Positions 3,829-54,025 of a DNA stretch of 62,047 bases are shown here, one piece after another (positions within the stretch are counted from its first letter, which is position 1; the number at the start of each line of letters is the position of its first letter). Under the pieces are notes generated by a model. It was given only the letters and a program-made list of their open reading frames with translations. It was not told the DNA's origin and made no database searches. Made by a program: the position numbers and the translations under genes. The stretch is from a virus (taxonomy: Duplodnaviria > Caudoviricetes): positions 1 to 62,047 of the IMG/VR virus record IMGVR_UViG_3300032239_001225; one strand, written 5' to 3'.

Positions 3829-4340
3829 CTGCAGATTATAAAAAGATAGCTTTCTATGATATTAGAAACGTTTTATGGCAAGAATTACAAAACGCCAACA
3901 TGTTGGATTATAACGACTATTATGCTGATGGATTTGATGAGGGTATGATTCCTATTATCCCAGCACAAGAAATTCCAGAATTTAATAATTTATTGCCAGG
4001 AAAAACATATATAATTTATGATATTGTTAAAAAGAACATAGGCGTGGGCTGGTGGATGGACGAAGAAACTGTCACCTTAAGCATTGTTTCAAGAAGTCAA
4101 AATCAGATTCAAACAATAGTCAACTTCCTAGTTGACGTATTTAGAAGATATGACAAATCGGCCAAAGAAGTTCAACTGCAAATATCCGCAAATAGTCCAT
4201 TTAAGTTTCATTATTTTAAGCTTGATTCTGCAGACCCAGTTCAAGCCTTTAGTGATGAGGGCGGGTTTATGTTGGGCAATATATCAATCTCGTATGCTTT
4301 TACAAGAGATCTAGACCCAGTTACTGGAAGATACCTATAA
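3825..4340 (+). CDS. Tail terminator protein (putative)
   Basis: 171 aa immediately upstream of the tail tube gene. Confidence 0.55.
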   Translation: MTADYKKIAFYDIRNVLWQELQNANMLDYNDYYADGFDEGMIPIIPAQEIPEFNNLLPGKTYIIYDIVKKNIGVGWWMDEETVTLSIVSRSQNQIQTIVNFLVDVFRRYDKSAKEVQLQISANSPFKFHYFKLDSADPVQAFSDEGGFMLGNISISYAFTRDLDPVTGRYL

Positions 4341-4438
4341 ATTTGCTTTATATCAAACTAATGCTATCCTTTTATATGAGGAAGTAAAATTGTTTTATTT
4401 TTTTTATTCTAAATAAAATAAGGTGGTGAAATAAAAAA

Positions 4439-5167
4439 ATGGCTACAAATACAAAAAATGTTATTGTCGGAGCAGCAGATCTATTCCTTAGCGTTGGAAA
4501 CAACTCTAATTCAACTGGTCGTCCAGCTACTGACGCAACAACTCTAGGATCTTTGTTTGGTGCAACTCAGTCAGCACGTACAGGTCTATTATCGTCAACT
4601 GCTTACAGCGAACTCGGATTCACATCAACAGGTCTTGAAATTTCATACGAACCAGTATATGGTGAAGTAATGGTTGATCAGCTTTTAGACGCAGCTCGTT
4701 TATTCAAGCAAACCCTTAAGGTTATGCTTAAGACAGAGCTTGTAGAAGCAACTCTTGAGAATCTTACTCTTTCATGGGGTCAGATGGATTCATACTATGT
4801 AAACGCTTCAGGAAGTGCGATTTCTAATGTAAACACATTAGCATCAGGAACTCCAGTAAATGCTGAGACAGGTGCAACCCTTAATATGGCTGCAGGTGCT
4901 CTCGGAGATGCTCCAGTAGAACGTACACTCATTGCTGTTGGAAATGCTCCATCAACAATTAAGGGTGCTGCAACTACAAAGCGTAACAAAGAGCGTGTAT
5001 ATGTTGCACGTCGTGTTGTTTCAATTGACACAACGGCTCACGGATTAAAGCGTGATTCAGCAACAGTATTCCCAGTAAACTTCCGTTGCTTACCAGATGA
5101 TTCAAATGCTTCTTATGCAGGAGCTGAATATGGTGTAGTAATTGACCGTGTATGGGGATCTAATTAA
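4439..5167 (+). CDS. Major tail tube protein
   Basis: NVIVGAA, LGFTS.GLEISYEP and T.L.EATLENL motifs; strong leader and terminator. Confidence 0.88.
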   Translation: MATNTKNVIVGAADLFLSVGNNSNSTGRPATDATTLGSLFGATQSARTGLLSSTAYSELGFTSTGLEISYEPVYGEVMVDQLLDAARLFKQTLKVMLKTELVEATLENLTLSWGQMDSYYVNASGSAISNVNTLASGTPVNAETGATLNMAAGALGDAPVERTLIAVGNAPSTIKGAATTKRNKERVYVARRVVSIDTTAHGLKRDSATVFPVNFRCLPDDSNASYAGAEYGVVIDRVWGSN

Positions 5168-5624: not shown

Positions 5625-5908
5625 ACTTACGCTCCTTAGAATCCGAAGTATTCTTGCTAGGTCATTGGAAAAATTTTGATGAACTAGAATCTAATCTCTC
5701 TTTGGAGGAATTGATGGCTTTGCTTGATGTTTCAAGAAAAAAAGATTATGATGACAAGAAGTTTATTGCAGCAATAAATGGAGTTGATCTTGAAGAGCAA
5801 TCTAAAGACAACGAAGATATAGCTGATCTTAAAGGTTTTGCAGCAAGCAAAGATGGCTTTGGTGTAGATCAAGGTATCGCAGTGATGCAAATGGGGGAGG
5901 ATGAGTAA
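5591..5908 (+). CDS. Tail assembly chaperone frameshift extension (gpT-like; track ORF 5654..5908)
   Basis: -1 frame reads PTRSGTSWDGLDLRSLESEVFLLGHWKNFDELE... without stops into the track ORF. Confidence 0.75.
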   Translation, partial: PTRSGTSWDGLDLRSLESEVFLLGHWKNFDELESNLSLEELMALLDVSRKKDYDDKKFIAAINGVDLEEQSKDNEDIADLKGFAASKDGFGVDQGIAVMQMGEDE

Positions 5909-8900
5909 TGGCACAAGTTGAATTAAATATAGTTGCCCTTGGCGATTTCTCCTCCGTTAATGCACAGATAAAATCTTTGCAAGAACAAGTATTGCTTTTA
6001 CAAAAGAATATGGCAGGAGTTGGAGTAAGCTCTAACTTTGCTAAAGAATTAGCAAGTGTCAACGCAGCATTCAGGCAAACAATGCTATCAACTGGTCAAT
6101 TTACTGCTGCAACAGTAAAAATGACTTCAGAAACAGAAAAATTTGGTCAAGCACTTGTTACTGGTAAATTAAAACTTACTGATTATTACAATATAATTAA
6201 ACAAAAGAATTCTGAAGCAGTAACTCAAATGAAAGCTCTTGCAGTAGAGCAAACAAAACTTCAAAATTCTATAGTTATGAATGATCCTTCTAAGCAAGGA
6301 ATTCTTTCTGTATACACCCCAACTCAAATTAATAAAGTTGCAAATGCTACAAAGATTGCAACTCATGAAGCAAATCTTTATGCTATAGCAGTTCAAAAAG
6401 GATCTGAGCAATTAATTACTTGGGGTAAAAATACTCAGTGGGCAGGTCGTCAGTTAACTGTTGGTATGTCTGTTCCACTTATGATATTTGGACAGCAAGC
6501 AACAAAAGTATTTACTGATGTAAATAATGAATTAGTTAGATTACAAAAAGTTTATGGAACAGGTTTAGTACAACCTTCAAAGCAAGCACTTGATGCAATA
6601 AAATCACAAGTTACAGGATTAGCAAGAGAGCTTGCAAGCACTATGGGTGTTGCTGCAAAAGATACTGCAGCAATGGCAGCTGACTTAGCTGCAACTGGAA
6701 AAACTGGAAATGATTTGCTTGTAGCAACAAGAGAAGCTATGAGGCTTTCAAAATTAGGAGAGCTTGATACTCAAGCAGCAATGAAAGCAACAGTATCATT
6801 GCAAAATGTTTATAAGTTAAGCACACAACAACTTTCTGGAGCAATAGATTTTCTTAACGCAGTTGAAAACCAAACATCAACAAGCTTACAAGATTTAGTT
6901 GATGGTATTCCCCGTGTAGGACCAATTGTTCAACAACTTGGCGGTTCCTTCAAAGATACTGCTGTAATGATGGTAGCTATGAAAGAAGCAGGAGTTCCAG
7001 CAGCTCAATCTGCAAATGCAATTAAATCTGCAATTGCTTCATTAATTAATCCTACAGTAGGTGCACAAAAAGCTTTTGCTGCATTTCATATTAATTTAAA
7101 AGATATAGCAACTTCAACAGGTGGAAATCCAATAAAAATGATTATGGAGTTGCAAACTGCATTAAAAGGTTTGCAGCCTTTAGCACAAGCTCAATTAATT
7201 GAAAAGCTTTTTGGTAAATTCCAAGAAGCAAGAATCCAAGCACTTATAGCAAATTTGGGTGCTAATAATAGTCAAACAAAAACAGCTTTTGACCTTATGA
7301 ATGCTAATAGTCAACAACTTGCAGCAGTAGCTGCGGGAGAAATGAAAACTGCCACAGAGTCAGTTACTGGCAAATATCAAAGATCATTACAAACTTTTAA
7401 AGCTAATTTAATTCCAGTAGGACAAGAATTAGTTAAAATAGCAACTAAGCTTTTAGATTTTGGAAATTCAGTGGGTAAAGTATTTAGTGGATTGCCAGGA
7501 CCATTAAAATCTATTATGGGTGCAATTGCAATAGGTATTGCATTAGCTGGTCCAATTATTATGTTAACTGGTTTATTTGCTAACTTTGCAGGATATGTAT
7601 TAAAAGGATTTTTTAATTTAAAACAGTTAGCAACAGGTGGAAAAACATTAGGTCAGCTTTTAACACCAGAATTAATTGCTGCAGAAAATGCAAGTAGGTT
7701 ATTTCAATCAGGAATTGCTGGAGATGTTGAAGCAGTAAATCTTCTTTCAAAGGCTATTAAAGATTTAACATTAAGTATTGAAAGCATGGTTGGTTCAATT
7801 TCAACAGGAACAGGAATTGGTAGAGTTCTGCAAAATGTTGCAACAACAGCAAGAACTGCAGAACAAATGCCTCTTCCAGGATTTGCAACTGGAAAGATGC
7901 CAAGTGGCATTGTTCCAGGAACTGGCTCTGGAAAGGTTGATACTTTCCCAGCAATGCTTGCACCAGGTGAGCTTGTTGTTGATACAGAAACAACAAGGAA
8001 ATATTGGCCACTATTAAGTCGAATAGTTACTGGAAAAGTTCCAGGATATCACGAAGGAAATTATTATGATACTAAGGGCAACTTACAGGCATTAGGTCCA
8101 CACAGTCATACATCATCAAGTCAAATTGATAAAAGAAGTAAAGAAAGAATAACAGAGCAAAGCGGAAATGCTGTATATGTTGGCCCACAAGCTGGTAATG
8201 AAGGAAGCGGTTCTATACCATCAGTCTTAAGTGGCCTTGCTGGTTATATTTCTAGAATTAGTGGTTTGGGTAATAAGTTAGAGCAAGAAGTTACTCCAGC
8301 AGTTAATGCCTTAGCCAAAGAATTAGAATTTGACCCAATGAGTGCTAATTCACAAAGAGCACAAATTTCAATGATGCATTTTTCTCCAAAAAGAACTGTA
8401 TTGCCAGGAGATGATCCAAGTAAAGGAACAAGAAAAGTTTGGGATTTCCCAGATATGGCAGCAGGTTCTCAAGGAGATAATCAGCTTTCAGTATACTTTG
8501 ATGCAACTAAAACCACTGGTAAAAAAATACGTCCATACTTAATGGGACAAGCAGAAAAAGCAAGAGCAGCAATGATTGCTGAAATTACAGATCCAAAAAC
8601 AGGAATTCTTAATGAAAACGATAGAAAAGAAGCACTTAAAGCAATAGAAGAAGGATTTGCTACAGTAACATCTGGTGGGGCAGCTATAACAAAAGAAGCA
8701 GTAGATTTAACTCATAGAGTAACTGATTTAGTTGTACAAGATATTAAAAATAAATCTGATAATTTGCCAGAGCAAATTGTTGCTCCAGAAAAATTAGATA
8801 AAAAAGGAAATATTAAATCAAAGCGTCAATTGACTGGTGCTGGCTATGATATTCTTTGGGCAAATGAAACAACAAGAAGACAGCTTTCAGGAGAACTCCC

Positions 8901-11900
8901 TGCTCCTAGTGATTTAACTGCAGACAAATGGATGCAAGAAGCAGATGTTTCAAGCCATCCAACTCCAGCTGCATTAAAGGGCAGAAAAGAACTTCCTTTT
9001 GTTCCATTAATGGGTGCAAATGCAAATGTTGCAGAAACTGGAGGTCAGTATAATTTCTCACAACTTACCCCAGAACAAGTTGCTGTACATCAAAAAGCAC
9101 TTGATCAATTTATTGCTATTGAAGTAAAAGCGGGAAGAACGGGAACTCAAGAATTTAAAGCACTACAAGATGCATATAAGAATGCAATGCAAGAATTTGA
9201 TACTCAAGCAAAAACAATAGAATCTGAGATAGAATCAATACAGCAAAGAATTTTATCTGAAGGTCCAAATATGGCTGCAAAGCAGTTAGATAAATTAAAA
9301 ATTCAATTAGAAGAACAACAAAATGCACTTGCAAGTATTGGACAAGTTATGTCCAATGGATTTGCAACAGGAATACTTGGTGGAATTCCTGAAGTTGAAG
9401 CAAGTGCAAGAAGACTTGCACAATCAGCAATTATAAGTGTTGCAAGAACTCAAAAGAGTGCTTCTAAATCTAAAGTAACAGAACAATTAGGATTTGATTT
9501 TGGCGATGGATATGATTATGGAATATTGTCAACGGTTCCACAAACAATAATTGCAGGAGAAACATTAGGTAAATCAGGCATACAAGGATTAGAAGAAGGA
9601 ATCGGTGCTTCAGGCGGTTCTACCATGCTGGGCAGAATAACTAGCAAAATTCCATTTATGGGCAAGATGATGCCTAAATTAGGCAATATGATGAATTTTG
9701 GTTTAGGAACTGCGTTTATGATTGGTGGTCAAATGTTGGCCAGCTCACTTCCAAAGAATAGTAATGCAGCTGGCCTAGCCTCAGCAGCAGCAACTGGAGC
9801 AGGAATGGCAGCTTTCATTCCTGGAGTAGGTCCAGTTGGAGGAGCAGCAATTGGATTAGCAATAGCTGGAATTAAAGATTTAATAAAGGCAGGGAAAGAA
9901 CAAGAAGCACAATCTAAAGCAACTTGGCAATCAAGTACAGCTGCAGCAACATTTTATAACAGAGCTACTGTAGATACAGTAAATCACCTTAAAGATATTA
10001 AGTATGAAGAGACTGGTTTATTTAAACCAGTTGCAGATTTAGCTAATCAATATAAACAAGTAAATGTTCAACTTGATAAATTTATAGCTATGGTTAAATC
10101 ATTACCTTCAAATGATCCATTAAGTCTTTTAATTAAAAATATTAAAGAAACATCAGATTCTAATGCTGCTGGAAAATTAGCACAAAATTTTGTAAACATA
10201 CAAACAGCAATTGGTCAAATTGATTCAGCTAAAGCAAAAGACCTTGTTAATTTAATACTTACTGCAGGTGAAAAAGGAGCATTAGTAGGATCAGTAAATG
10301 TTGCTAAATCTCAAATTGATGCAGTTATTAGTACACTCAATGCATCCTCAACAGCTGGAACATTTGGAACAGTGTTGCAACAAATTACAGCAGCAGCACA
10401 AAATACAACAAGTTTAACAACATTTAAAAACATAATTAGCGGGATACAACAGTCTAGTGCAAATTCATCTGCAGGAATTGATGCATACCGTATAAGTTTA
10501 ACTAAACTTTCAGATCAGACATTAGTTACAAAACTTGCTGCAATGGGATATAAATTAGCTGACATCATTAAGATAATGACGTTATTTCAATCTGGTGCAA
10601 TAGTAAATGTTGCAGGTGGTCCAGCAAAAACAATCGAAGCAATTAATAAACAAATTGATGCCCAATTTGCAAAAATAAATGCAGCAACTGCTCCATTAAA
10701 AGCACAACAAACAGCAACTCAGGGTCAACTTGATAACACTAACAATCAAATAACGGCTTTAGAAAAAAAGAAAGCAATTATAGATAAAGAATTAAAAACT
10801 CAACGTGATATTGCAACAGAAATGCAAAGACAGCATGATTATACTGTTTCTCAAATTGATCTTCAAAACAAACAAAAAGATGCATTTATTCACGGCGACT
10901 ATTTATCAGCAGCAACAATAGGTCAGCAAAAAGACTATGCAACAATGCAATTTAACCAACAAACAAAAGCAGTTGGATTACAAGGTCAATCTGATTTGCT
11001 TGCACAAAAAATTGCTGATCTTCAAGCCTCAGCCTCTAGTTTGTCATCTTCTATAACTACACTTGGAAATAAAATTCAAACTCTTGCAGATACAATTGCA
11101 AAAACACCTGTAAAAACAGGAGGAGATGTTATTGGTGTAGATTCTGGTAATTTAGGAATACATGCAGTATATCCAAAACCAAATGAACCTGGTTACAATC
11201 CTGCGGGAATGCCAATATATGAGGATAAATATGGAAACATAGTAGATCCAAACACTGCAGCTACAATTCCAGTAAATGCTCCAAAAGGAATAGATTCAAA
11301 AGGAACACATAATCCAGTTGAAGAAAAGGGAGTTCATAAAGCTTATAGTGGAGTTCCAACAGATCTTAAAGGAGGACCATATCCATATAAAGATAAAGCA
11401 ACTGGATTAACATATCTATCGAACGGTCTAGTGCTTGATAAAAACAATAAAATAATTTCTCAATGGTATAGAGCACCAGAAGGTGATAACTCTGGAAGTA
11501 CTGTTGTTGCATTTGCAGATGGTGGTCATATAAGAGGAGCTGGAACTGCAACATCTGATTCAATCCCAGCCTACCTTTCTAACGGAGAATATGTTGTTAA
11601 AGCAGATGCTGTATCTCATTATGGAACTAGTTTTTTTGATTCAGTAAATGCAAAGAAATTTAAAGATGGTGGGCCAACTACACCTAATAAATCATTAGTT
11701 CAAAAAGCCTGGGATTATATGATATTTCCTCAAATTCTAGCACTAGATAGATTAAATGCTACAGCTGCTCAATCAGATCCAATTGCTTCTACAAATAAAA
11801 AACAATATAAAGCATGGGAAATCGCAGCTAAAAATGGAAAGGGTATGTCTGTTTTTTGGCAAGAATTTTTACAAACATTATTTGATACTTCTATGCTTCT

Positions 11901-14364
11901 TACCCCTTCAAGCGGAGTAATGAGAAGTTTTGTGGAAAATTTTGGTGCAGCAAAAGGAATAACAGGATTAGGTTCTTTATTACCAAAAGGCTCATTACCA
12001 TTTTTAGGATCAACTAGTTCAAAAATTGCAACAAATGCAGCAACTGCTGCAATAATTGGTGCAGCAAAACCATTTGTTGAATCAAAATCTAATTCTTTAT
12101 TGTCAGATTTAAGACCAAAAATAAAAATAACTTCTTCGATTGACGATTTGATGAAAAAAACTGTAAAACCAGGATGGGTAGAATATAATGGTAAAAAAAT
12201 TCCTACTTATACTGGCGGACCATTTGGAGAAAAAACAATAGTTTATCAAGGCGTGGGAGATGATTTTAGTGAACTTCTAAAAAGAGGAAAAGTAGATAGA
12301 GTTATTCCAACAAGTGCAAAAGGTTTATTAGAATACATAGTTTCACAAAAACCAAAAGATAAAAACCTTCAAGCAATGCTTGCTAATTTTGATGTTGGGC
12401 ATACAGCAATGGGTGCACCCGAAACACAATTTTTAACAAAAATGTTAGCTGTAACTAATTTTGCTCCAAAAAAACTTGATTTAAAGGGATTAGTTTCACA
12501 ATTACCAAAAGAATATTTAGATAAAATAAAAGCTAATAATCTTGATATGGGTAAAGACTGGCCTCATAAAACTGTAGACCAATTACCAGAAAATGTCATA
12601 GAAGCTTTACAAAAAATGCAATTAGAAAAAGAATTGCAACAACAAAGAATAAAGGAATTGTGGTATGGGCTTCCTAAATCTGAATTATCAACATCTCAAT
12701 TAGGACTTACTAGGCAGTCAGATACACAAGGTCTTACAACATTAATTAGCTCCATGCTAGGTGATAAAGGTGCAACGGAACAAGTTAATGCAAGATTAAA
12801 AATGATTAGCCCAACTCTTGCTAAAATAGTATCTGCATATAAAAGTAATTTAACAGAAAAAGAACCAAATAACAATTTTGATTTAAGTCAATTGCCAATG
12901 ATTAGATCATTTGATTTTGGAATTAAATATGATAAATATGGAAATATTGCTTCAAATGCACCTGGCTTTGAAATATTTGATAATATATTTAAACCCTATA
13001 ACGGTTTAAGGGGTGGGGATGCAAGAGTAACAGAACATTGGGCTCCTTTTGATGTTGTTCAAAATAGTGTATTTCATTTAAATAGTGGAGCATGGAACAC
13101 ACAAAAACCAGTAGCTGTTACATCTTTAGAAAATTTAATTAAATCAAGCGACCAACCTGCGTTAGAATCGTTAATAGCTGTAGATTCATGGCGTGTACCA
13201 AATTGGTTAAAACAAAATAAAGTACTTAGAAAAAATACTTCTATTATACAACCATATACAACAAAAGAAGCATATGTTAATGCTTTAAAAGAACGTGGAC
13301 TTTATAAAGAAGGTAAGCCATTAAGTCTTTTTACAGAAAATACGAATCCAAATCAAAAAGAAGTGCTTATGTTGTTAAAGAAAAAATATTCAAATTCAGA
13401 TTTAAATGAAATACAAAAACTGTTTGATGAAGATAAATTTTTGCCAAAAATTAAAAGAATAGAAAAATCAGATAGAAATCTTTGGGATATGGAAAATGAT
13501 ATCGTATTTCAAGCTGATGAAAAATATAATAATGCTCATTATACTACTGATAGGTTAATGCAAATGTATTCAAATAGACTTGCACAAAAACAAATTGGAA
13601 TTGATATGCCTTACAAAGAAGTTGTTGGAGGAAGTCAGGGAGTAGGAGAACCATACTTAGGATATATTCGCTCACAACTTGGAATCGCTAATCAAGGATT
13701 ACATCAGGGGACCCCACTTGCTAATTTAGAAACAGAAGGCTTTAGCCTTAAAGGTAGTCCCTATGATTTTGCAAAAATTAGTAACCCATTTGTAACATTA
13801 CTTGACGGAGGGGTTTCAACAAAAAAAGCTGCATTAAGTGCACTTTTGATGCATACTTATTTTGGAAAATTTAGTAGTGATGCTTTACGAGCAGGATGGA
13901 GTGATACAGAAAGTAAAAGAATTGAATCATTAATTTCTGGTTATGTAAGACATGTAACTGCATACAAATATGGTGAAACAAAAATACCACCAATATCTGA
14001 GGAAAAACTTACAGAAGAAATTCAAAAGATTAAAGAAGATTATAAAAATAAACTTTCTACAGGTGGTTATGTTTCTAGCAAAATACAAACTCCAAAATTA
14101 CCTACATATAGTCTTCCTTCATTTGCTGTAGGAACAGATTATGTTCCACATGATATGATTGCTCAAATCCATAAAGGAGAAAGAATTGTACCTGCAAGTG
14201 AAAATAGTGGTACAATGGTAGGACATACCTTTAATATTAATATTGATGGAGCCAGATATACTGATCCAGATAAGCTTGCTAAAATAATTACTGATACTGT
14301 TATTGCAAAGCTTAATGTAAATTCTTCAAAGGTAAATGTAACAAATAGGGTGGGGAGAAACTAA
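5908..14364 (+). CDS. Tape measure protein with large inserted regions
   Basis: 2818 aa after the chaperones; Ala-rich helical N-terminal TMP domain; FADGG...SDSIPA.LSNGE.VV and FAVG...H.GE...P motifs. Confidence 0.92.
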   Translation: MAQVELNIVALGDFSSVNAQIKSLQEQVLLLQKNMAGVGVSSNFAKELASVNAAFRQTMLSTGQFTAATVKMTSETEKFGQALVTGKLKLTDYYNIIKQKNSEAVTQMKALAVEQTKLQNSIVMNDPSKQGILSVYTPTQINKVANATKIATHEANLYAIAVQKGSEQLITWGKNTQWAGRQLTVGMSVPLMIFGQQATKVFTDVNNELVRLQKVYGTGLVQPSKQALDAIKSQVTGLARELASTMGVAAKDTAAMAADLAATGKTGNDLLVATREAMRLSKLGELDTQAAMKATVSLQNVYKLSTQQLSGAIDFLNAVENQTSTSLQDLVDGIPRVGPIVQQLGGSFKDTAVMMVAMKEAGVPAAQSANAIKSAIASLINPTVGAQKAFAAFHINLKDIATSTGGNPIKMIMELQTALKGLQPLAQAQLIEKLFGKFQEARIQALIANLGANNSQTKTAFDLMNANSQQLAAVAAGEMKTATESVTGKYQRSLQTFKANLIPVGQELVKIATKLLDFGNSVGKVFSGLPGPLKSIMGAIAIGIALAGPIIMLTGLFANFAGYVLKGFFNLKQLATGGKTLGQLLTPELIAAENASRLFQSGIAGDVEAVNLLSKAIKDLTLSIESMVGSISTGTGIGRVLQNVATTARTAEQMPLPGFATGKMPSGIVPGTGSGKVDTFPAMLAPGELVVDTETTRKYWPLLSRIVTGKVPGYHEGNYYDTKGNLQALGPHSHTSSSQIDKRSKERITEQSGNAVYVGPQAGNEGSGSIPSVLSGLAGYISRISGLGNKLEQEVTPAVNALAKELEFDPMSANSQRAQISMMHFSPKRTVLPGDDPSKGTRKVWDFPDMAAGSQGDNQLSVYFDATKTTGKKIRPYLMGQAEKARAAMIAEITDPKTGILNENDRKEALKAIEEGFATVTSGGAAITKEAVDLTHRVTDLVVQDIKNKSDNLPEQIVAPEKLDKKGNIKSKRQLTGAGYDILWANETTRRQLSGELPAPSDLTADKWMQEADVSSHPTPAALKGRKELPFVPLMGANANVAETGGQYNFSQLTPEQVAVHQKALDQFIAIEVKAGRTGTQEFKALQDAYKNAMQEFDTQAKTIESEIESIQQRILSEGPNMAAKQLDKLKIQLEEQQNALASIGQVMSNGFATGILGGIPEVEASARRLAQSAIISVARTQKSASKSKVTEQLGFDFGDGYDYGILSTVPQTIIAGETLGKSGIQGLEEGIGASGGSTMLGRITSKIPFMGKMMPKLGNMMNFGLGTAFMIGGQMLASSLPKNSNAAGLASAAATGAGMAAFIPGVGPVGGAAIGLAIAGIKDLIKAGKEQEAQSKATWQSSTAAATFYNRATVDTVNHLKDIKYEETGLFKPVADLANQYKQVNVQLDKFIAMVKSLPSNDPLSLLIKNIKETSDSNAAGKLAQNFVNIQTAIGQIDSAKAKDLVNLILTAGEKGALVGSVNVAKSQIDAVISTLNASSTAGTFGTVLQQITAAAQNTTSLTTFKNIISGIQQSSANSSAGIDAYRISLTKLSDQTLVTKLAAMGYKLADIIKIMTLFQSGAIVNVAGGPAKTIEAINKQIDAQFAKINAATAPLKAQQTATQGQLDNTNNQITALEKKKAIIDKELKTQRDIATEMQRQHDYTVSQIDLQNKQKDAFIHGDYLSAATIGQQKDYATMQFNQQTKAVGLQGQSDLLAQKIADLQASASSLSSSITTLGNKIQTLADTIAKTPVKTGGDVIGVDSGNLGIHAVYPKPNEPGYNPAGMPIYEDKYGNIVDPNTAATIPVNAPKGIDSKGTHNPVEEKGVHKAYSGVPTDLKGGPYPYKDKATGLTYLSNGLVLDKNNKIISQWYRAPEGDNSGSTVVAFADGGHIRGAGTATSDSIPAYLSNGEYVVKADAVSHYGTSFFDSVNAKKFKDGGPTTPNKSLVQKAWDYMIFPQILALDRLNATAAQSDPIASTNKKQYKAWEIAAKNGKGMSVFWQEFLQTLFDTSMLLTPSSGVMRSFVENFGAAKGITGLGSLLPKGSLPFLGSTSSKIATNAATAAIIGAAKPFVESKSNSLLSDLRPKIKITSSIDDLMKKTVKPGWVEYNGKKIPTYTGGPFGEKTIVYQGVGDDFSELLKRGKVDRVIPTSAKGLLEYIVSQKPKDKNLQAMLANFDVGHTAMGAPETQFLTKMLAVTNFAPKKLDLKGLVSQLPKEYLDKIKANNLDMGKDWPHKTVDQLPENVIEALQKMQLEKELQQQRIKELWYGLPKSELSTSQLGLTRQSDTQGLTTLISSMLGDKGATEQVNARLKMISPTLAKIVSAYKSNLTEKEPNNNFDLSQLPMIRSFDFGIKYDKYGNIASNAPGFEIFDNIFKPYNGLRGGDARVTEHWAPFDVVQNSVFHLNSGAWNTQKPVAVTSLENLIKSSDQPALESLIAVDSWRVPNWLKQNKVLRKNTSIIQPYTTKEAYVNALKERGLYKEGKPLSLFTENTNPNQKEVLMLLKKKYSNSDLNEIQKLFDEDKFLPKIKRIEKSDRNLWDMENDIVFQADEKYNNAHYTTDRLMQMYSNRLAQKQIGIDMPYKEVVGGSQGVGEPYLGYIRSQLGIANQGLHQGTPLANLETEGFSLKGSPYDFAKISNPFVTLLDGGVSTKKAALSALLMHTYFGKFSSDALRAGWSDTESKRIESLISGYVRHVTAYKYGETKIPPISEEKLTEEIQKIKEDYKNKLSTGGYVSSKIQTPKLPTYSLPSFAVGTDYVPHDMIAQIHKGERIVPASENSGTMVGHTFNINIDGARYTDPDKLAKIITDTVIAKLNVNSSKVNVTNRVGRN

Positions 14365-43811: not shown

Positions 43812-44152
43812 TGTTAAAAGGCGTATATAGCGATAAAGAAGATTTTGATTGCAAAGACCTATATTTACATTCGGTAAGTGCCCCATCAGGCGGAAAAATC
43901 TGGAATGTTTGTCATGAAATTGCCAAATTACTTATTGAGAAGAACATATCATATGGTGACTCAGCTCTATCGCCAAATAGAATATTTGCTCAATCTGATA
44001 ATGTAGAACAACTCAAGGTTAGAATTGATGATAAGTTAAATAGAATAAAGAACAATCAGGGCTTTGCTGGAGATAATGATGTTGATGATTTGATTGGTTA
44101 TTTAATCTTACTTAAAATTGCCCTTGACAAAAAGGATAATAAAGGAGTATAA
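43811..44152 (+). CDS. Nucleotide-modification-associated helical protein (DUF1599-like)
   Basis: KN..YGDS ... RIDDKL.R ... DL.GY pattern. Confidence 0.6.
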   Translation: MLKGVYSDKEDFDCKDLYLHSVSAPSGGKIWNVCHEIAKLLIEKNISYGDSALSPNRIFAQSDNVEQLKVRIDDKLNRIKNNQGFAGDNDVDDLIGYLILLKIALDKKDNKGV

Positions 44153-44153
44153 T
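44124..44153 (+). promoter_or_regulatory. Sigma-A promoter TTGACA-N18-TATAAT, probably giving a leaderless mRNA
   Basis: Perfect hexamers; ATG lies 5 nt after the -10 box. Confidence 0.7.
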
Positions 44154-47151: not shown

Positions 47152-47400
47152 ATGAATATGATAGTTGATCAAGAAGTAGAAGAAGTAATACCAGTTAAAG
47201 AGTACGTACTCAGTCCAGTTAATCGCTGTGATCAATGTTCTGCTGAAGCACTTGTTCTTGTCAAAGGAGTGACGGGAGAACTAATGTTTTGTGGTCATCA
47301 TTACGCTAAAAATGAAGTTGCCCTAGTAAACTTTGCATATGAAGTTATTGATGAAAGAGAAAAGTTGATACAAAACAAGCTTATAGGATCTGAAAACTAA
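47152..47400 (+). CDS. Small zinc-binding protein
   Basis: RCD.C...L.FCGHH; a leaderless start at 47158 is possible. Confidence 0.65.
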   Translation: MNMIVDQEVEEVIPVKEYVLSPVNRCDQCSAEALVLVKGVTGELMFCGHHYAKNEVALVNFAYEVIDEREKLIQNKLIGSEN

Positions 47401-47640: not shown

Positions 47641-47713
47641 GCCCCAGTAATCCAGTGGTAGAGATAGTGGACTTAAAATCCATACAGCGACAGTTCGAAT
47701 CTGTCTTGGGGTA
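47641..47713 (+). tRNA. tRNA-Leu (TAA), short variable loop
   Basis: GCCCCAG/TTGGGGT acceptor, GTGGA-CTTAAAA-TCCAT, TTCGAAT T-loop. Confidence 0.85.
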
Positions 47714-47750
47714 CAAAGTTTAAAGTTAATCTGATAAATAAGGAATCAAA

Positions 47751-48704
47751 ATGAAAAACAAAACAGTATTAATAACGGGTGGCTTAGGCTTTATTGGTTC
47801 ACATGCAATCAGTAAATGGATAAAAAAAGGTTGGAAAGTAGTTGTTTTTGATAATCTTTCTTCAAATGTTATAGATATAGACAATAAATTATTAAAAAAT
47901 GTTGAGTTAGTTATAGGTGATGTTTCAAAGATAAAATATACAAAAAAAATTGACCTTATAATTCATTTAGCCTCTCCAATAGGAACAGTTTCTCTGCTTG
48001 ATCATCCTGGCAAAATTGCAAAAATAATTATTGATGATTTATATTCAGTTATATCTTTATCTAAAGATAACAAATGTCCTTTAATATTTGCATCTACATG
48101 TGAAGTATATGGTAGCAAAAAAAATATTTTTGTTACAGAAAATGATGAAAAAGTTGTGTCAAGTAAATATGAAGTAAGAAGCGAATATTCAGTAGCAAAA
48201 ATGTTATGTGAAGTTATTTTATCAAACATAGCAAAATCTGATACAAGCTTTAAATACCAGATTATAAGACCATTTAATGTGGCGGGGCCAAATCAAAAAT
48301 GGTCTGGTGGTCATGTAATACCTAGATTTGTAAAGCAAGCAAAATCAAATGAAGACATAACTGTATATGGAAACGGTATGCAAATACGGTCTTTTACTTA
48401 TGTAGAAGATGTTATTAATGCCATTTATTTAATTTCTAAAGCACCAAACAGATTATATAATAATACTTGGGATGTAGGAAACATTCAAAATGCAATAACA
48501 ATAGATGAATTAGCACATTTAATAAAAGATATTTCTAATTCTAATTCAAAAATAGTTTATGTAGATCCAAAAAATTTGCATGGAAAATTGTTTTCAGAAG
48601 TTAATACAAAAATTTCTCAAAGCAATAAATTAACAAAATTTTTTGGATGGAAATCAACAAAAGATTTAAAAAGCATATTAAAGGAAATAATATATGAGAA
48701 ATAA
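47751..48704 (+). CDS. NAD-dependent nucleotide-sugar epimerase/dehydratase/decarboxylase (extended SDR)
   Basis: TGGLGFIGSH, HLAS, ASTCEVYG, YSVAK, RPFNV.GP and RSFTYVED. Confidence 0.9.
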   Translation: MKNKTVLITGGLGFIGSHAISKWIKKGWKVVVFDNLSSNVIDIDNKLLKNVELVIGDVSKIKYTKKIDLIIHLASPIGTVSLLDHPGKIAKIIIDDLYSVISLSKDNKCPLIFASTCEVYGSKKNIFVTENDEKVVSSKYEVRSEYSVAKMLCEVILSNIAKSDTSFKYQIIRPFNVAGPNQKWSGGHVIPRFVKQAKSNEDITVYGNGMQIRSFTYVEDVINAIYLISKAPNRLYNNTWDVGNIQNAITIDELAHLIKDISNSNSKIVYVDPKNLHGKLFSEVNTKISQSNKLTKFFGWKSTKDLKSILKEIIYEK

Positions 48705-49416
48705 AATTGGAATTATTGGATATGGAGAAATTGGATCTGGTCTTTATTCTTTGTATAACAAATTTAATTACCCTATTGCAGTATTAGATCCTAAACTTGA
48801 ATATAAAGATGAAATGTCTGGTTGTTATATATTAAATATTTGCATACCATTTTCAGATAATTTTGTTGATATTGTTAATGATTATATAAATAAATATAAA
48901 CCTTTTATGACAATAATTCATTCTACAATTGCTCCAGGAACCACAAAAAAAATAATTGGTGCTGTTTGTCATTCACCCGTTCGTGGAACTCATCCAAATA
49001 TTTATGAGGGGCTAAAAACATTTTTAAAATATATAGGATCAGAAGATAGCAAAATTGCTTTAAAATATCAAGAACATTTAACGGAATTAGGTATTAAATC
49101 TTATATTTGCAAAGATAGCAAAACAACAGAGTACTCCAAGCTGTTAGACACAACATACTATGGTTTATGCATAGCATTTCACTCAGATGTTCTTGCTATG
49201 TGTGAAAAAGAAAATTTAGATTTTTATGAAGTAATGACATTATTTAATACGACTTATAATGAAGGATACGGTATTTTAAACAAACATAATTATATTCGAC
49301 CAGTTTTATATGGAGATAAAAAAATAGGTGGCCATTGTGTTGTTCCAAATGCTAAAATATTAAAAAATTATTTTGATTCAAATATTATTGACAATATCTT
49401 AAAATATGATGTATAA
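48694..49416 (+). CDS. UDP-glucose/GDP-mannose dehydrogenase family protein (short form)
   Basis: GIIGYGEIG Rossmann motif, HSTI.PGTT, E..KL and IGGHCV catalytic Cys. Confidence 0.75.
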   Translation: MRNKIGIIGYGEIGSGLYSLYNKFNYPIAVLDPKLEYKDEMSGCYILNICIPFSDNFVDIVNDYINKYKPFMTIIHSTIAPGTTKKIIGAVCHSPVRGTHPNIYEGLKTFLKYIGSEDSKIALKYQEHLTELGIKSYICKDSKTTEYSKLLDTTYYGLCIAFHSDVLAMCEKENLDFYEVMTLFNTTYNEGYGILNKHNYIRPVLYGDKKIGGHCVVPNAKILKNYFDSNIIDNILKYDV

Positions 49417-49417
49417 T
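49388..49417 (+). promoter_or_regulatory. Sigma-A promoter TTGACA-N18-TATAAT
   Basis: Perfect hexamers 7 nt upstream of the structured element. Confidence 0.75.
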
Positions 49418-49424
49418 AAAAATA

Positions 49425-49534
49425 GGTTATACACGGCACACCTTGGGATGTTATAGTTACAATATAATGTACACCCGATGTAAGAGTCAGGTGAGACAGG
49501 GCAGCCATTCAGTGCTGGAAATCCGTGTATAACC
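49425..49534 (+). ncRNA. Candidate structured ncRNA of unknown family
   Basis: Perfect 12-bp terminal stem GGTTATACACGG/CCGTGTATAACC with inner helices; own promoter; abuts tRNA-Gly. Confidence 0.55.
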
Positions 49535-49538
49535 CCTT

Positions 49539-49609
49539 GCGGATGTTGCATATTGGTAGTGCCTCTGCCTTCCAAGCAGAAGGGGTCAGTTCGATTCTGA
49601 TCATCCGCT
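49539..49609 (+). tRNA. tRNA-Gly (TCC)
   Basis: GCGGATG/CATCCGC acceptor, TCTGC-CTTCCAA-GCAGA, U73. Confidence 0.92.
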
Positions 49610-49614
49610 CACAT

Positions 49615-49685
49615 TCCCAGATCGTCTAACGGTAGGACACGGCCCTTTGGAGGCTGGTATCTTGGTTCGAATCCAGGTCAGGGAG
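49615..49685 (+). tRNA. tRNA-Gln (TTG)
   Basis: TCCCAGA/TCAGGGA acceptor (one A-A mismatch), CGGCC-CTTTGGA-GGCTG, TTCGAAT. Confidence 0.85.
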
Positions 49686-49730
49686 CAAATAATGTTATAA
49701 TATATTTATATTAATTTTTTAGGAGATACA

Positions 49731-50420
49731 ATGCCATACAAAATTGTACAACACGGAAATAAGTTTTCAGTAGTAGCACAAAATACTGGAAATGTTGCAG
49801 GAACACATGAATCTAAAAAGCAAGCACAGGCACAAATGGCTGCTTTATATGCAAATGAACCAGAGGCAAGTGTAAAAAAGTGTATGACTTGCGGATGCGA
49901 TGATTTAGGTAACGATCATCATTATATTTCTGATACAGAAAAGTGTATGTCATGTATTGAAAAGAAACAAGGGCCATGTTGGGATGGATATGCTTATGCT
50001 GGAACCAAAGATAAAAATGGTAAGACTGTTCCAAATTGCATTCCCGTCAAAAAATCTGATGGTGGATATCAACCAAATGCAGGTATGAAAGCTGCAGCAC
50101 GTAGAGCTTTAAAGTGGAAAGAAGATGGAAAAGCAAATGGTGCAGGAACTGGTGTAGGTTGGGGACGTGCAAGCGATATTGCTGCTGGTAGATCAATGTC
50201 TCTTGATACTGTAAAAAGAATGTTTTCTTTCTTTTCACGTCATGAAGTTGATAAGCAAGGAAAAGATTGGGATAAACCATCTCACGGAAAGATTATGTGG
50301 AATGCTTGGGGCGGAGATGCTGGGTATTCATGGTCTCGTGCAATTGTTGAAAGAGAAAAGAAAATTGAAAAAGAAATCTGGAAAGGTGCTTTTTCGCCAA
50401 GCATAAAGAAAAATAAATAA
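49731..50420 (+). CDS. Modular protein, putative internal head protein
   Basis: Short modules separated by xxK sites; C-terminal IWKGAF motif. Confidence 0.6.
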   Translation: MPYKIVQHGNKFSVVAQNTGNVAGTHESKKQAQAQMAALYANEPEASVKKCMTCGCDDLGNDHHYISDTEKCMSCIEKKQGPCWDGYAYAGTKDKNGKTVPNCIPVKKSDGGYQPNAGMKAAARRALKWKEDGKANGAGTGVGWGRASDIAAGRSMSLDTVKRMFSFFSRHEVDKQGKDWDKPSHGKIMWNAWGGDAGYSWSRAIVEREKKIEKEIWKGAFSPSIKKNK

Positions 50421-50821: not shown

Positions 50822-50851
50822 TTGACAGCAATATAAACAATTTGATATAAT
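50822..50851 (+). promoter_or_regulatory. Sigma-A promoter TTGACA-N18-TATAAT with extended TG
   Basis: Consensus upstream of hsp20. Confidence 0.75.
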
Positions 50852-50914: not shown

Positions 50915-51403
50915 ATGACACATTTAAAACCTTATGGATGGGATGAATATGAAGTCCATCAAACAAAAAAAACAACACCAACACAATATAACCCATTTGC
51001 AACAATTGAAGCATGGTTTAATGATCCATTCTTTTTGGGATTCCATGATCAATTTTCAAGATGGAATACTAATAAGGTAGCAACCTCTACATTCCCACCT
51101 TACAATGTTAAGAAAATTGATGAGGACAACTATATTGTTGAACTTGCAATTGCGGGATATGAGCGTGAAGACATTGATGTAACAGTAGATAAAGATACAT
51201 TAATTATCAAGAGTGAACGTGAGAATGATGATAAGGCAGATTACCTTCATAAGGGTATTGCTGGACGTAATTTTACACAAACATTCACCCTTGGTGAGTA
51301 TATGATTGTTAAATCTGCTGCACTTGATAATGGATTGTTAACTGTTAAAATTGAACGGGAACTTCCAGAGTCTGTTAAGCCTAGACAAATCAAGATCAAG
51401 TAA
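50915..51403 (+). CDS. Small heat shock protein (Hsp20/IbpA-like)
   Basis: FPPYN, ELAIAG, YLHKGIAGRNF and A.LDNGLL.V...R..PE..KPR.I.I. Confidence 0.93.
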   Translation: MTHLKPYGWDEYEVHQTKKTTPTQYNPFATIEAWFNDPFFLGFHDQFSRWNTNKVATSTFPPYNVKKIDEDNYIVELAIAGYEREDIDVTVDKDTLIIKSERENDDKADYLHKGIAGRNFTQTFTLGEYMIVKSAALDNGLLTVKIERELPESVKPRQIKIK

Positions 51404-51417
51404 GATATAATGTATAT

Positions 51418-51442
51418 GCAGGCTCTCATTGTGGGAGCCTGC
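51418..51442 (+). promoter_or_regulatory. 11-bp hairpin between hsp20 and the next ORF
   Basis: GCAGGCTCTCA-TTG-TGGGAGCCTGC just after a TATAAT box; no U-tract. Confidence 0.45.
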
Positions 51443-51460
51443 TCTAAACAAAGGATATAT

Positions 51461-51583
51461 ATGCCAAGCAATACAGATAAGATCAAGAAAGCTTTAGAAA
51501 TTCGTATTAAGAATCACAAGGGTCCAGGCGGTAAAGTTCCAGGGTCTATGAACAAAAAAAAGACTGGCTACGCTAAACCATAA
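51461..51583 (+). CDS. Small basic protein (40 aa, not in track)
   Basis: AAGGA SD; MPSNTDKIKKALEIRIKNHKGPGGKVPGSMNKKKTGYAKP. Confidence 0.5.
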   Translation: MPSNTDKIKKALEIRIKNHKGPGGKVPGSMNKKKTGYAKP

Positions 51584-51604
51584 AAACAATGTATAATTAG
51601 TTAT

Positions 51605-51856
51605 ATGTGGAACAAAATCTCAACATATGCTAGAAGATACCCTGCGAGAATATCGGGATATACTTCCGCATTAATTTTGTGGGGACATAAATATTTTTCG
51701 GGCAAACTTGTTGATCTATTAATACCTTCAATTATGTTTATGATTGGTATGGGGGAAATGGCTCAAAGAGCAGAAAATAAAAAGACAATAAAAGCACTTT
51801 ATACTGATAATGATCCACATAGATCAGATGAAGAAATAATTAAGGATATTATATGA
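51605..51856 (+). CDS. Small membrane protein
   Basis: Two moderately hydrophobic segments; ATG 7 nt after TATAAT. Confidence 0.55.
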   Translation: MWNKISTYARRYPARISGYTSALILWGHKYFSGKLVDLLIPSIMFMIGMGEMAQRAENKKTIKALYTDNDPHRSDEEIIKDII

Positions 51857-52296
51857 ACGAGCAAGATTTGATTGACGCTTTAAAAACATTAAAATCAATG
51901 GTTGTAAAAATGTATGTTCAATCTCACGGATATCATTGGAATGTAGAAGGATCTAATTTTCCACAATACCACAAGTTTCTTTTAAAAATTTATTCAGATG
52001 TATATGAGTCTATTGATCCAATTGCAGAAAATATTCGTAAATTAGGTGCAAAAGCACCATTTGGATTAAAGTCTTGGCAAGAAGGCAGCAAATTAGAAAT
52101 TAATGATTCAGAAAATCTTGATGCAAGGACTATGCTTCAAGAATTAGTACAAACTAATACAGTTGTTCTTGCAATGTTAAAAAGAACCTACGACATATCT
52201 AATGAATTAGATGAACAAGGTATATGTAACTTTTTAGCAGGAAGAATTGAGCAGCATAAATTCTGGCAATGGCAATTGACAAGCACTTTAAAGTAG
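51853..52296 (+). CDS. dps: Dps/ferritin-like DNA protection protein
   Basis: HGYHWNVEG..F..YH, D.IAE.IR.LG and H.F..WQL. Confidence 0.9.
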   Translation: MNEQDLIDALKTLKSMVVKMYVQSHGYHWNVEGSNFPQYHKFLLKIYSDVYESIDPIAENIRKLGAKAPFGLKSWQEGSKLEINDSENLDARTMLQELVQTNTVVLAMLKRTYDISNELDEQGICNFLAGRIEQHKFWQWQLTSTLK

Positions 52297-52304
52297 TATA
52301 GAAT
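52276..52304 (+). promoter_or_regulatory. Sigma-A promoter TTGACA-N17-TAGAAT
   Basis: Consensus upstream of tRNA-Lys and tRNA-Arg. Confidence 0.65.
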
Positions 52305-52320
52305 ACAACTACAACTTGAT

Positions 52321-52352
52321 AAGGGGCACTAGAAATAGTGCCTCTTGTGTTT
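52321..52352 (+). terminator. Hairpin (terminator or tRNA leader stem)
   Basis: AAGGGGCACTA-GAAA-TAGTGCCTCTT with a weak T-tract. Confidence 0.5.
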
Positions 52353-52425
52353 GTCCTTATAGCTCAGTCGGTAGAGCAGCAGACTTTTAATCTGCGGGTC
52401 GTTGGTTCGAATCCAACTGGGGACA
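52353..52425 (+). tRNA. tRNA-Lys (TTT)
   Basis: GTCCTTA/TGGGGAC acceptor, GCAGA-CTTTTAA-TCTGC, TTCGAAT. Confidence 0.92.
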
Positions 52426-52426
52426 C

Positions 52427-52498
52427 GCCTCTGTAGCTCAGCGGAAGAGCGTACGGTTTCTACCCGTCAGGCCAGGAGTTCGAATCTCTTCAGGGGCA
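52427..52498 (+). tRNA. tRNA-Arg (TCT)
   Basis: GCCTCTG/CAGGGGC acceptor, ACGG-TTTCTAC-CCGT, TTCGAAT. Confidence 0.88.
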
Positions 52499-52531
52499 CG
52501 TAAGAAAACAACTACTAACAGAAAGAGTAAA

Positions 52532-53416
52532 ATGAAAAAGTTAATCTTAGCAGTAATGATTGCAACAAGTTTAATTCCAGTATCAGCCAATGCAGATGTA
52601 CCAAATACAAACATTGCAATTATTGATACAGGTTATGATGCTTCAGTTGCACAATTTTCAGGAAAGATTGTATATGAAGTTTGTTTCACAAACAACTATT
52701 GTCCTAATGGTAAGTCCTTTCAAGAAGGAACAGGGTCTGCAGTATTAACACCTGCACAACTAACAGCAAAAGATGCTACGCATGGAACACAGATGTTATC
52801 TGCATCAATTGCAACAAACCCTAATACAAAGTTTGTTTATATTCGTGCTTACGGAATTAATAATGGTGTGTTAAATTCACCAGTAGATGCTGATTTTATT
52901 ACCATGCTTAGCTGGATTAATAATAATAAGACAAAGTTTAATATTGGTGCGGTTGTATGGAGTGGTGCTCGTCATATTACTACAGCATGTCCTGTAAATG
53001 ATCCAATTACAGCAGCAGTAATCAATCTTAACAATAATGGCATCCCAGTAATTTCTGCAGCAGGTAATGATTATGACTATGTTCACGTATCATTCCCCGC
53101 TTGCTTGCAACCAATTATTGCAGTAGGCTCAATTGACGCTTACGGACATGCACTTTACAGTAATGCTGGAAAAGATCTTGATTTTGATGCAATGGGAACT
53201 ATGACGGTTTCAAATGGCGGGACAGCAAAGATCCAATCAGTAGGAACTTCACTAGCAGCACAGGTATTTGCAGCATCTTGGATTGCAATTAAACAAGCAA
53301 AGCCAACACTTAGCTATCAGCAAGAATATGCTTTAATCCAAAACACACAAACTACCTCAAAAAACGTATATGTAAAAAATATACCTACGCTTAATTTGGC
53401 TGGGTCTCTAAAGTAA
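52532..53416 (+). CDS. Secreted subtilisin-like serine protease (S8)
   Basis: Signal peptide; IAIIDTG (Asp), HGT (His), AAGN oxyanion, GTS.AA (Ser). Confidence 0.88.
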   Translation: MKKLILAVMIATSLIPVSANADVPNTNIAIIDTGYDASVAQFSGKIVYEVCFTNNYCPNGKSFQEGTGSAVLTPAQLTAKDATHGTQMLSASIATNPNTKFVYIRAYGINNGVLNSPVDADFITMLSWINNNKTKFNIGAVVWSGARHITTACPVNDPITAAVINLNNNGIPVISAAGNDYDYVHVSFPACLQPIIAVGSIDAYGHALYSNAGKDLDFDAMGTMTVSNGGTAKIQSVGTSLAAQVFAASWIAIKQAKPTLSYQQEYALIQNTQTTSKNVYVKNIPTLNLAGSLK

Positions 53417-53473
53417 TAGAGTGTATAATAAGCATAGAGGAAGTTTTTGAGTCACTAATTTAGGGAGAATAAA

Positions 53474-54025
53474 ATGGGAGCAGCAAAACCAGTTCCACCA
53501 GTTACTGGAGCAAAAGAAGGATCAGCAGCACGATTTGTTGAAATTGCAAGATCGCAAATTGGCGTTATTGAAGGTCCAAAAGATAATGAAACAGATTTTG
53601 GTAAGTTTACAAAGCATGATGGACAACCTTGGTGTGGAAGCTTTATGATGTGGTGCGGATCACAATCAAAAGTAAAATTATTTGATGTAGTTTCTACAAT
53701 TGCGGGTGCAGAAGCATATAAAAAAGCAGGAAAGTGGACGGATGCAAAAGATGCAACCCCAAAGCCAGGAGATTTAATCTTCTTCCACTTTGCAGCAGAA
53801 GCAAAGCCAACAGATCAGATTCAACACGTTGGTGTTGTCGTTAAAGACAATGGCGATGGAACAATTGTAACTGTTGAGGGAAATACAAGTCCAGACTCAA
53901 AGCCAGCAGGATCTGCAGCAAATGGCGGAGAAGTTGCAATGAATGTTCGTGGATATAAAGTTGGCAACAAGCGTGGCAAGTGGGCTGTTGTTGTAGGCTT
54001 TGGTCATCCAGACTACACAGCATAA
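53474..54025 (+). CDS. CHAP-domain peptidoglycan hydrolase
   Basis: QPWCGSF, PKPGDL.FF, HVGVV and TVEGNT. Confidence 0.85.
   Translation: MGAAKPVPPVTGAKEGSAARFVEIARSQIGVIEGPKDNETDFGKFTKHDGQPWCGSFMMWCGSQSKVKLFDVVSTIAGAEAYKKAGKWTDAKDATPKPGDLIFFHFAAEAKPTDQIQHVGVVVKDNGDGTIVTVEGNTSPDSKPAGSAANGGEVAMNVRGYKVGNKRGKWAVVVGFGHPDYTA

Follow-up and report, generated by a model that had tools for sequence, protein, structure and literature searches.

The small stable RNAs encoded in the transfer RNA (tRNA) clusters of phages T4 and T5 have been without a function for about fifty years. According to GenBank, T4 carries RNAC (species 1, 139 nucleotides, nt) and RNAD (species 2, 119 nt) within its tRNA cluster, on the tRNA strand and 1–6 nt from their neighbors, and the roles of both are called unknown in parts of two publications (PMC3014915, PMC9697503). 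T5 has RNAIII (106 nt), RNAI (107 nt), RNAIV (103 nt), RNA1 and RNA2 (range 103–144 nt) in its tRNA region, where they abut tRNAs and are annotated as "stable RNA with unknown functions". Here, we describe a 110-nt RNA encoded on the plus strand at positions 49425–49534 of a 62,047-nt stretch of phage DNA (positions 1 to 62,047 of IMG/VR record IMGVR_UViG_3300032239_001225; Duplodnaviria, Caudoviricetes), the whole of which was analyzed and is referred to below as the window. It heads a set of tRNA genes transcribed from its own strand and lies within a few bases of them, encodes no protein and is not itself a tRNA; no homology linking it to the RNAs of T4 or T5 was found. The RNA, known from sequence alone, therefore fits the small stable RNAs of phage tRNA operons as a class defined by setting and not by homology. 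An initial annotation of this DNA had proposed a structured non-coding RNA that stands alone and has a promoter to itself, and direct reading of 49200–49900 confirmed its coordinates.

To collect relatives, we sampled loci in IMG/VR through homologs of a 229-amino acid (aa) protein encoded downstream of the RNA (441 confirmed, of which 80 loci were kept). An nhmmer search with a 118-nt query detected the RNA in 33 of the 80 loci (E < 1e-3), giving 25 distinct sequences counting that of the window. A covariance model, R1, produced 44 matches in 82 sources, 45 in the 45 loci retrieved by a 23-nt core pattern, 27 in 28 loci retrieved by two further patterns, and one in the single contig of a metagenome-assembled genome (MAG) that was searched; one locus, L160, contained the DNA pattern and had no R1 match at E ≤ 0.01. 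Altogether there were 117 hits, corresponding to 64 distinct sequences (61 of them full length) in 74 distinct contexts, with lengths of 79–127 nt from helix end to helix end. The RNA in the window itself scored 117 bits (E = 1.4e-28). The gene occurred exactly once in each of the five large records searched, four of which are at least 99% complete (101–112 kb), and it was present in one of five further fragments. As far as we searched, the family does not extend beyond a single clade of uncultured tailed phages from fresh water, with genomes of approximately 100–112 kb.

The ends of the RNA are joined by a perfect 12-base pair (bp) helix, designated P1, whose strands (49425–49436 and 49523–49534) had been noted in the initial annotation and were read again in the sequence. 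In an alignment of 32 distinct rows made by fit to the model (A2), all 12 P1 pairs were changed on both sides and 99.7% of P1 cells were paired. The covariation score of the whole structure in A2 was 0.358, compared with 0.174 for shuffled alignments (none of 500 reached the observed value) and at most 0.079 when the pairing partners were slid. Two MAFFT alignments prepared independently of the model (A1 and A4) gave the same picture; in A4, 95.2% of all cells were paired and 16 of 37 pairs showed changes on both sides. Although its strands occurred in 30 distinct forms, P1 consisted of exactly 12 contiguous pairs in 58 of the 61 full-length sequences. The base immediately 5′ of it was A in 54/61 and mismatched with the C that follows the helix, so that the helix is held at 12 bp. 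G-U pairs in the structure were compatible with the plus strand only. Because homologs and compensatory changes were both found, which is what the initial annotation had proposed to check, this is a real RNA gene and not a chance fold, and we consider it very probable that it represents a genuine and previously undescribed RNA family.

The 118-nt stretch folded at -36.1 kcal/mol (z = -2.98 versus shuffles). The model that emerged has five helices arranged around two three-way junctions, and single-sequence folds and alignments agreed on the order of the helices. P1 is followed by the joining strand CACA (49437–49440), in which CAC was found after P1 in 58 of 61 sequences, and then by the 5-bp helix P2, formed by CCTTG (49441–49445) and CAGGG (49497–49501); it was 94% paired, with one pair changed on both sides and a conserved U-G wobble compatible with the plus strand only. 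P2 encloses two hairpins. The first, P3 (49448–49470; stem strands 49448–49455 and 49463–49470, loop 49456–49462), carries at its tip the octamer ATAGTTAC (49453–49460), which was identical in 61 of 61 sequences. The second, P4 (49472–49493; stem strands 49472–49479 and 49486–49493), has the loop GTAAGA and showed changes on both sides in three of five counted pairs in A4 and in four of six in A2. A joining AGA then leads to the 3′ strand of P2 (together 49494–49501, placed by the single-sequence fold and the alignment), and is followed by hairpin P5 (49502–49517, CAGC/GCTG, with CATTC in its loop) and by the joining strand GAAAT (49518–49522) before P1 closes. In the family as a whole, the strand between P4 and P5 is of the GAGA type and that after P5 of the GGAAT type. 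Of the inner helices in the initial annotation, the CAGC/GCTG and TGTTATA/TATAATG hairpins were kept, whereas the proposed CACCT/AGGTG pairing was replaced by P2 together with P4. Short forms of 87–88 nt retain P1, CAC, P2, P3 and one small hairpin.

Two tertiary contacts may be considered. The CATTC of the P5 loop can pair with GGATG (49446–49450); this candidate pseudoknot was 92% paired in A4 with no change on both sides, and in a wider set it was fully paired in 28 of 58 sequences, with one position changed from G-C to U-A in four and a G·A mismatch in six. It is a possible feature that sequence comparison has not established. In the main subtype, the P3 loop (TTAC) might also form a kissing contact with the P4 loop (GTAA), both motifs being invariant there; GTAA is absent from P4 of other subtypes.

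The promoter proposed in the initial annotation was read in the sequence as well. On the plus strand, a -35 hexamer TTGACA (49388–49393, inside the 3′ end of the open reading frame (ORF) 48694–49416) and a -10 hexamer TATAAT (49412–49417) are separated by 18 nt and match the sigma-70-type consensus at 12 of 12 positions; the -10 hexamer contains the stop codon of that ORF and ends 7 nt upstream of P1, which predicts a transcription start at A49424 or G49425. The pattern TTGACA-N16–18-TATAAT occurs three times in the window, always on the plus strand, compared with 0.16 expected from shuffled sequences, and none of 100 shuffles reached three. Thus, the promoter is beyond chance, and these statistics, together with conservation of the fold, bear out the idea of a stand-alone structured RNA with a promoter of its own. 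Four more sites matching at 11 of 12 positions are found on the plus strand between 46.5 and 53 kb, two of them just upstream of tRNA-Asn and tRNA-Lys. Promoters of this kind are clearly used by the phage, which appears to depend on host-type consensus sites throughout this region. The other two perfect copies, each with the 18-nt spacer, are at 44124–44153 and 50822–50851, also on the plus strand.

P1 ends 4 nt upstream of tRNA-Gly(tcc) (49539–49610, plus strand), which is followed in the same transcription unit by tRNA-Gln(ttg) (49615–49686, plus strand); both were detected by ARAGORN and Rfam. RNase P would probably free the 3′ end of the RNA by cutting where tRNA-Gly begins, and the RNA probably includes A49424 on the 5′ side of the helix and the tail CCTT (49535–49538) on the 3′ side. 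No terminator-like site was found between 49534 and 49731, so the path from the RNA to the two tRNAs is uninterrupted, which supports the earlier proposal that all three are cotranscribed.

In the relatives, the gene was always found in tRNA operons and on the tRNA strand. A tRNA (Leu, Met, Gln, Thr or Ile) ended 0–2 nt upstream of the helix in 52 of the 74 contexts. In another 21 there was no upstream tRNA and a -10 hexamer lay 7–8 nt before P1; among these, the -35 hexamer matched at four or more of six positions in 16 (nine promoters being perfect at 12 of 12) and was weak in five. The one context left was cut by the contig end. These arrangements would place a transcription start or a processing site where the helix begins and so identify that point as the genuine 5′ terminus of the RNA. 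The promoter, although present in the window, does not define the family. On the other side, the next tRNA started within 12 nt in 55 of the 74 contexts.

Why the window has the promoter form can be seen from its closest relatives (L003, L004 and L147), in which tRNA-Leu(taa) abuts the RNA. In the window, unlike in these, two genes are inserted exactly between tRNA-Leu and the RNA (47715–49424): an NAD-dependent epimerase/dehydratase (47751–48704) and the ORF 48694–49416, whose product weakly matches UDP-glucose/GDP-mannose dehydrogenases in their central domain. Insertion of these two sugar-metabolism genes upstream accounts for the use of the promoter form here, and the predicted promoter at the end of the insertion would restore expression of the RNA, tRNA-Gly and tRNA-Gln. 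The tRNA-Leu(taa) of the window (47641–47714) is only 74 nt long, scores 56.2 bits with Rfam and lacks the long variable arm that is usual for bacterial leucine tRNAs.

The RNA was compared with all 4227 models of Rfam 15, including ribozymes, riboswitches, signal recognition particle (SRP) RNA, 6S RNA, YrlA and T-box. No match to the element was obtained at gathering thresholds in the window, at E ≤ 10 in the region 49380–49700 or at E ≤ 5 in nine diverse loci; in the 321-nt region, cmscan at E ≤ 10 returned the two flanking tRNAs only. ARAGORN listed nine tRNAs and no transfer-messenger RNA (tmRNA) in the window and nothing at 49425–49534, and the tRNA model RF00005 did not match there, which excludes a tRNA or tmRNA. 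These searches agree with the earlier statement that the RNA is not a cloverleaf and belongs to no recognized family. When 49300–49800 was compared by blastn with 50,697 phage records, the tRNA part alone was matched.

Several other candidates were also rejected. The stretch does not code for protein, and two minus-strand ORFs (49368–49508 and 49399–49575) were dismissed, as close relatives of 116, 117 and 118 nt differ by single-base insertions or deletions and the second ORF overlaps tRNA-Gly. A riboswitch or T-box leader was rejected because there is no expression platform, with 3–12 nt to the next tRNA in 55/74 contexts and no terminator-like site at 49534–49731. Hammerhead, hepatitis delta virus-like, 5S, SRP and T-box RNAs were rejected by eye on topology and by Rfam. 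For an antisense role against a phage target, the complement of the P3 apex was found at seven sites in the window (at most two mismatches) compared with 5.0 expected, which is not an enrichment.

RNAC and RNAD of T4 resemble the present RNA in setting and are of similar size, but share neither sequence nor structural homology with it. The 3′ part of RNAC is a hairpin resembling a T arm, and RNAD is no more stably folded than shuffled sequences (z = -0.83); neither feature is shared by the present RNA. R1, run with filters off on the T4 and T5 tRNA regions, matched none of the annotated RNAs on the strand that encodes them. T5 RNAIII (L129, 6285–6390, minus strand) has a predicted 12-bp closing stem around three hairpins (z = -2.85), an outline like that of the present RNA, and RNAIV is also predicted to be stem-closed with three hairpins; these T5 folds are single-sequence predictions, for a host and phage family that differ from those of the present phage. 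T5 also has tRNA-Gly(UCC) beside tRNA-Gln(UUG), as in the window.

Non-tRNA substrates of RNase P offer another comparison. The precursors of 4.5S RNA and tmRNA and the C4 RNA of phages P1 and P7 are cleaved by this enzyme by virtue of a helix resembling the tRNA acceptor/T arm. By analogy, the 12-bp helix and the tRNA-operon position of the present RNA suggest that it might follow the same route; however, Rfam recognizes it as none of SRP RNA, C4 and tmRNA, and in the promoter-headed form a cut by RNase P at its own 5′ end would be unneeded. YrlA, a Y RNA-like RNA, is approximately 110 nt long, has its 5′ and 3′ ends in a long stem and has been reported in some phages. The YrlA model (RF02553) had no match to the element and produced only weak matches (E = 0.17–1.8, far below gathering), located on neighboring tRNA pairs, and the present RNA lacks the T-arm mimic. 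In addition, no Ro/TROVE protein was seen among the 35 window ORFs scanned.

We propose that the gene makes a small, stable folded non-coding RNA that is released by RNase P and acts in trans as a binder through P3, and we place the probability of this reading as a whole at roughly 55%. The RNA would be the first cistron of a promoter–RNA–tRNA-Gly–tRNA-Gln unit, its 3′ end being generated when RNase P cuts just before the first base of tRNA-Gly, 4 nt beyond the helix; most relatives would obtain their 5′ end through processing 2 nt after the upstream tRNA. Exonucleases are probably kept from both ends by the 12-bp helix, which may also allow handling by enzymes that act on tRNA ends, as 12 bp is the length of the tRNA acceptor stem stacked on the T stem. 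In trans, the RNA would serve as a specific binding partner (a decoy or sponge) of a host or phage factor, with P3 as the recognition site. This function is the more tentative part of the proposal, and we regard a trans-acting binder or decoy that works through the invariant hairpin as possible, at somewhat less than even odds. A trans role is preferred over a cis filler because the octamer is invariant, the helix length is fixed and the gene is conserved as a single copy.

Several points weigh against this reading. Among the 20 sequencing runs returned for 48900–50100, none of RNA that contains this DNA was listed. The apical pairs of P3 are invariant, so covariation is uninformative precisely at the proposed recognition site. 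In 17 of the 74 contexts there is no nearby downstream tRNA, and the 12 downstream exceptions that we inspected mostly had a ribosome-binding site and an ORF without a terminator (in two, a tRNA lay 12 or 35 nt away). Release by RNase P, as first suggested, thus suits most contexts and is not universal, and a role as a cis-acting 5′ leader is possible. The P3 apex also has the form of an extended -10 element, TGnTATAGT. As a mimic of a tRNA end, judged from the sequences, the RNA is imperfect, as the 3′ tail begins with CC in 46 of 61 sequences but mostly reads CCT, with CCCA in only five of the first 47. Finally, Pfam or PHROGs scans of 35 window ORFs recognized no RNA-binding family, and no partner was identified.

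In one alternative, the RNA is a cis-acting processing or stability cassette that folds on itself, protects the 5′ end, spaces the tRNAs or insulates cistrons, and has no target in trans. Such a cassette could equally stand first after a promoter (21/74), after a tRNA within arrays (52/74) or directly before ORFs, its closing helix would sequester both ends, and its 3′ modules P4 and P5 could be swapped or lost, as they are in some subtypes. We consider it unlikely, though worth keeping in mind, since filler would hardly keep the octamer in 61/61, CAC in 58/61 and a 12-bp helix in 58/61 amid 30 forms of the helix sequence, and a single copy in every complete genome searched would be unexpected for it. 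The same fixed helix, with the mismatch of the preceding A (54/61) and following C, the CC tail and a placement within arrays that is exactly tRNA-like, would suit a mimic of the tRNA end that RNase P, the CCA-adding enzyme or a host enzyme acting against tRNA 3′ ends would take for an acceptor/T-arm minihelix; the RNA might then be a competitor of tRNAs, such as a decoy that counters a tRNA-directed defense, and the 12-bp closing stem in the predicted fold of T5 RNAIII is in line with this. However, the inner end of the helix carries nothing that resembles a T loop, neither the Rfam tRNA model nor ARAGORN detects the RNA, and the tail mostly reads CCT and not CCA; we regard mimicry as distinctly improbable. 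A still more speculative version, to which we assign little weight, is a counter-defense decoy in which the 12-bp helix and CC tail would pose as the minihelix and the hairpin would be the bait, sequestering, in the course of infection, a host enzyme directed at tRNAs or their 3′ ends. If this were true, a function would for the first time be assigned to the small stable RNAs of phage tRNA operons.

The remaining explanations concern the junctions and the octamer. Two three-way junctions, conserved purine-rich joining strands (GAGA, GGAAT and CAC) and the possible loop-to-junction pseudoknot could belong to a catalytic RNA or ligand-binding aptamer of a new class, but Rfam yielded no ribozyme or riboswitch match at the thresholds given above, the lengths of the junction strands are, by eye, unlike those of the hammerhead core, an expression platform has no room in the 3–12 nt before the next tRNA, and the pseudoknot lacks convincing covariation. 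This explanation is very unlikely, and nothing in the analysis favors the ribozyme role raised in the initial annotation. Alternatively, the conserved core might function as DNA, with TGnTATAGT acting as an extended -10 promoter that drives the downstream tRNAs from within the element, or as a protein-binding site. The window and most subtypes contain TG-N-TATAGT, the promoter scan listed TATACA-N18-TATAGT, with a TG, at 49428–49457, and ORFs located just after the RNA have similar TGnTATAAT elements ahead of them. On this explanation, the compensatory changes in P1, P2 and P4 and the strand-specific G-U pairs are left unaccounted for, the TG spacing is lost in subtypes with TGGATATAGT, and the octamer is invariant while the true -10 hexamers of the same phages vary (TATAAT, TACAAT and TATACT); we therefore give it the least credence. 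The trans-acting RNA remains our preferred reading.

Independent of its function, the family is a new and well-defined case of a known, unexplained class, the small stable RNAs of phage tRNA operons. It offers a better handle on this class than cases from single genomes, as there are 64 distinct sequences with clear covariation, ends sharply defined by promoter phasing and tRNA spacing, a fixed 12-bp helix and an invariant hairpin sequence. Two questions become testable: which factor binds the hairpin, and whether tRNA-end enzymes read the 12-bp helix; the phages and their host, however, are uncultured. The family is also a candidate for inclusion in Rfam.

As for the phage itself, gene products recognized in the window include a 2818-aa tape-measure protein, DNA polymerase, a DnaB-like helicase, primase, RecA and a large terminase. 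This terminase shares 66% identity with its counterpart in Streptomyces phages, the closest being Stanwilliamsviridae. One member of this family, Streptomyces phage Enygma, has the same order of terminase ... tRNA-Gly(tcc)-tRNA-Gln, and R1 found no homolog of the RNA in this locus or in the whole Enygma genome. In the genome-contig collection, the 23-nt core pattern was present in one contig, the 23.8-kb JBBALJ010000049.1 (L130) from a Bacteroidia MAG bin, which at 4296–5065 contains the tRNA array of these phages, RNA included; the collection thus showed no copy encoded by a host. A Bacteroidia bin for a phage whose terminase is like that of actinobacterial phages is either a binning artifact or a hint of the host.

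Some features of the surroundings were also observed. Inside the tRNA array, between tRNA-Asn and tRNA-Ile, an 82-aa ORF (47152–47400) carries a Cys/His-rich DUF7455 domain. Most related loci have a gap of this size after tRNA-Asn, and the ORF may be a conserved partner of the tRNA/RNA cluster. Another stem-closed tRNA leader is seen further downstream, where a near-perfect promoter TTGACA-N17-TAGAAT (52276–52304) is followed by a 13-bp hairpin (52319–52348) that ends 4 nt before tRNA-Lys. Auxiliary genes beside the tRNA region (50915–54025) encode an Hsp20-family protein, a ferritin-like protein, a subtilase and a CHAP-domain peptidase. The tape-measure gene (5908–14364) implies an unusually long tail, and it is followed by ORFs of 1492, 1329 and 1221 aa, of which the 1492-aa product matches a PHROGs minor tail protein family and the other two match no family.

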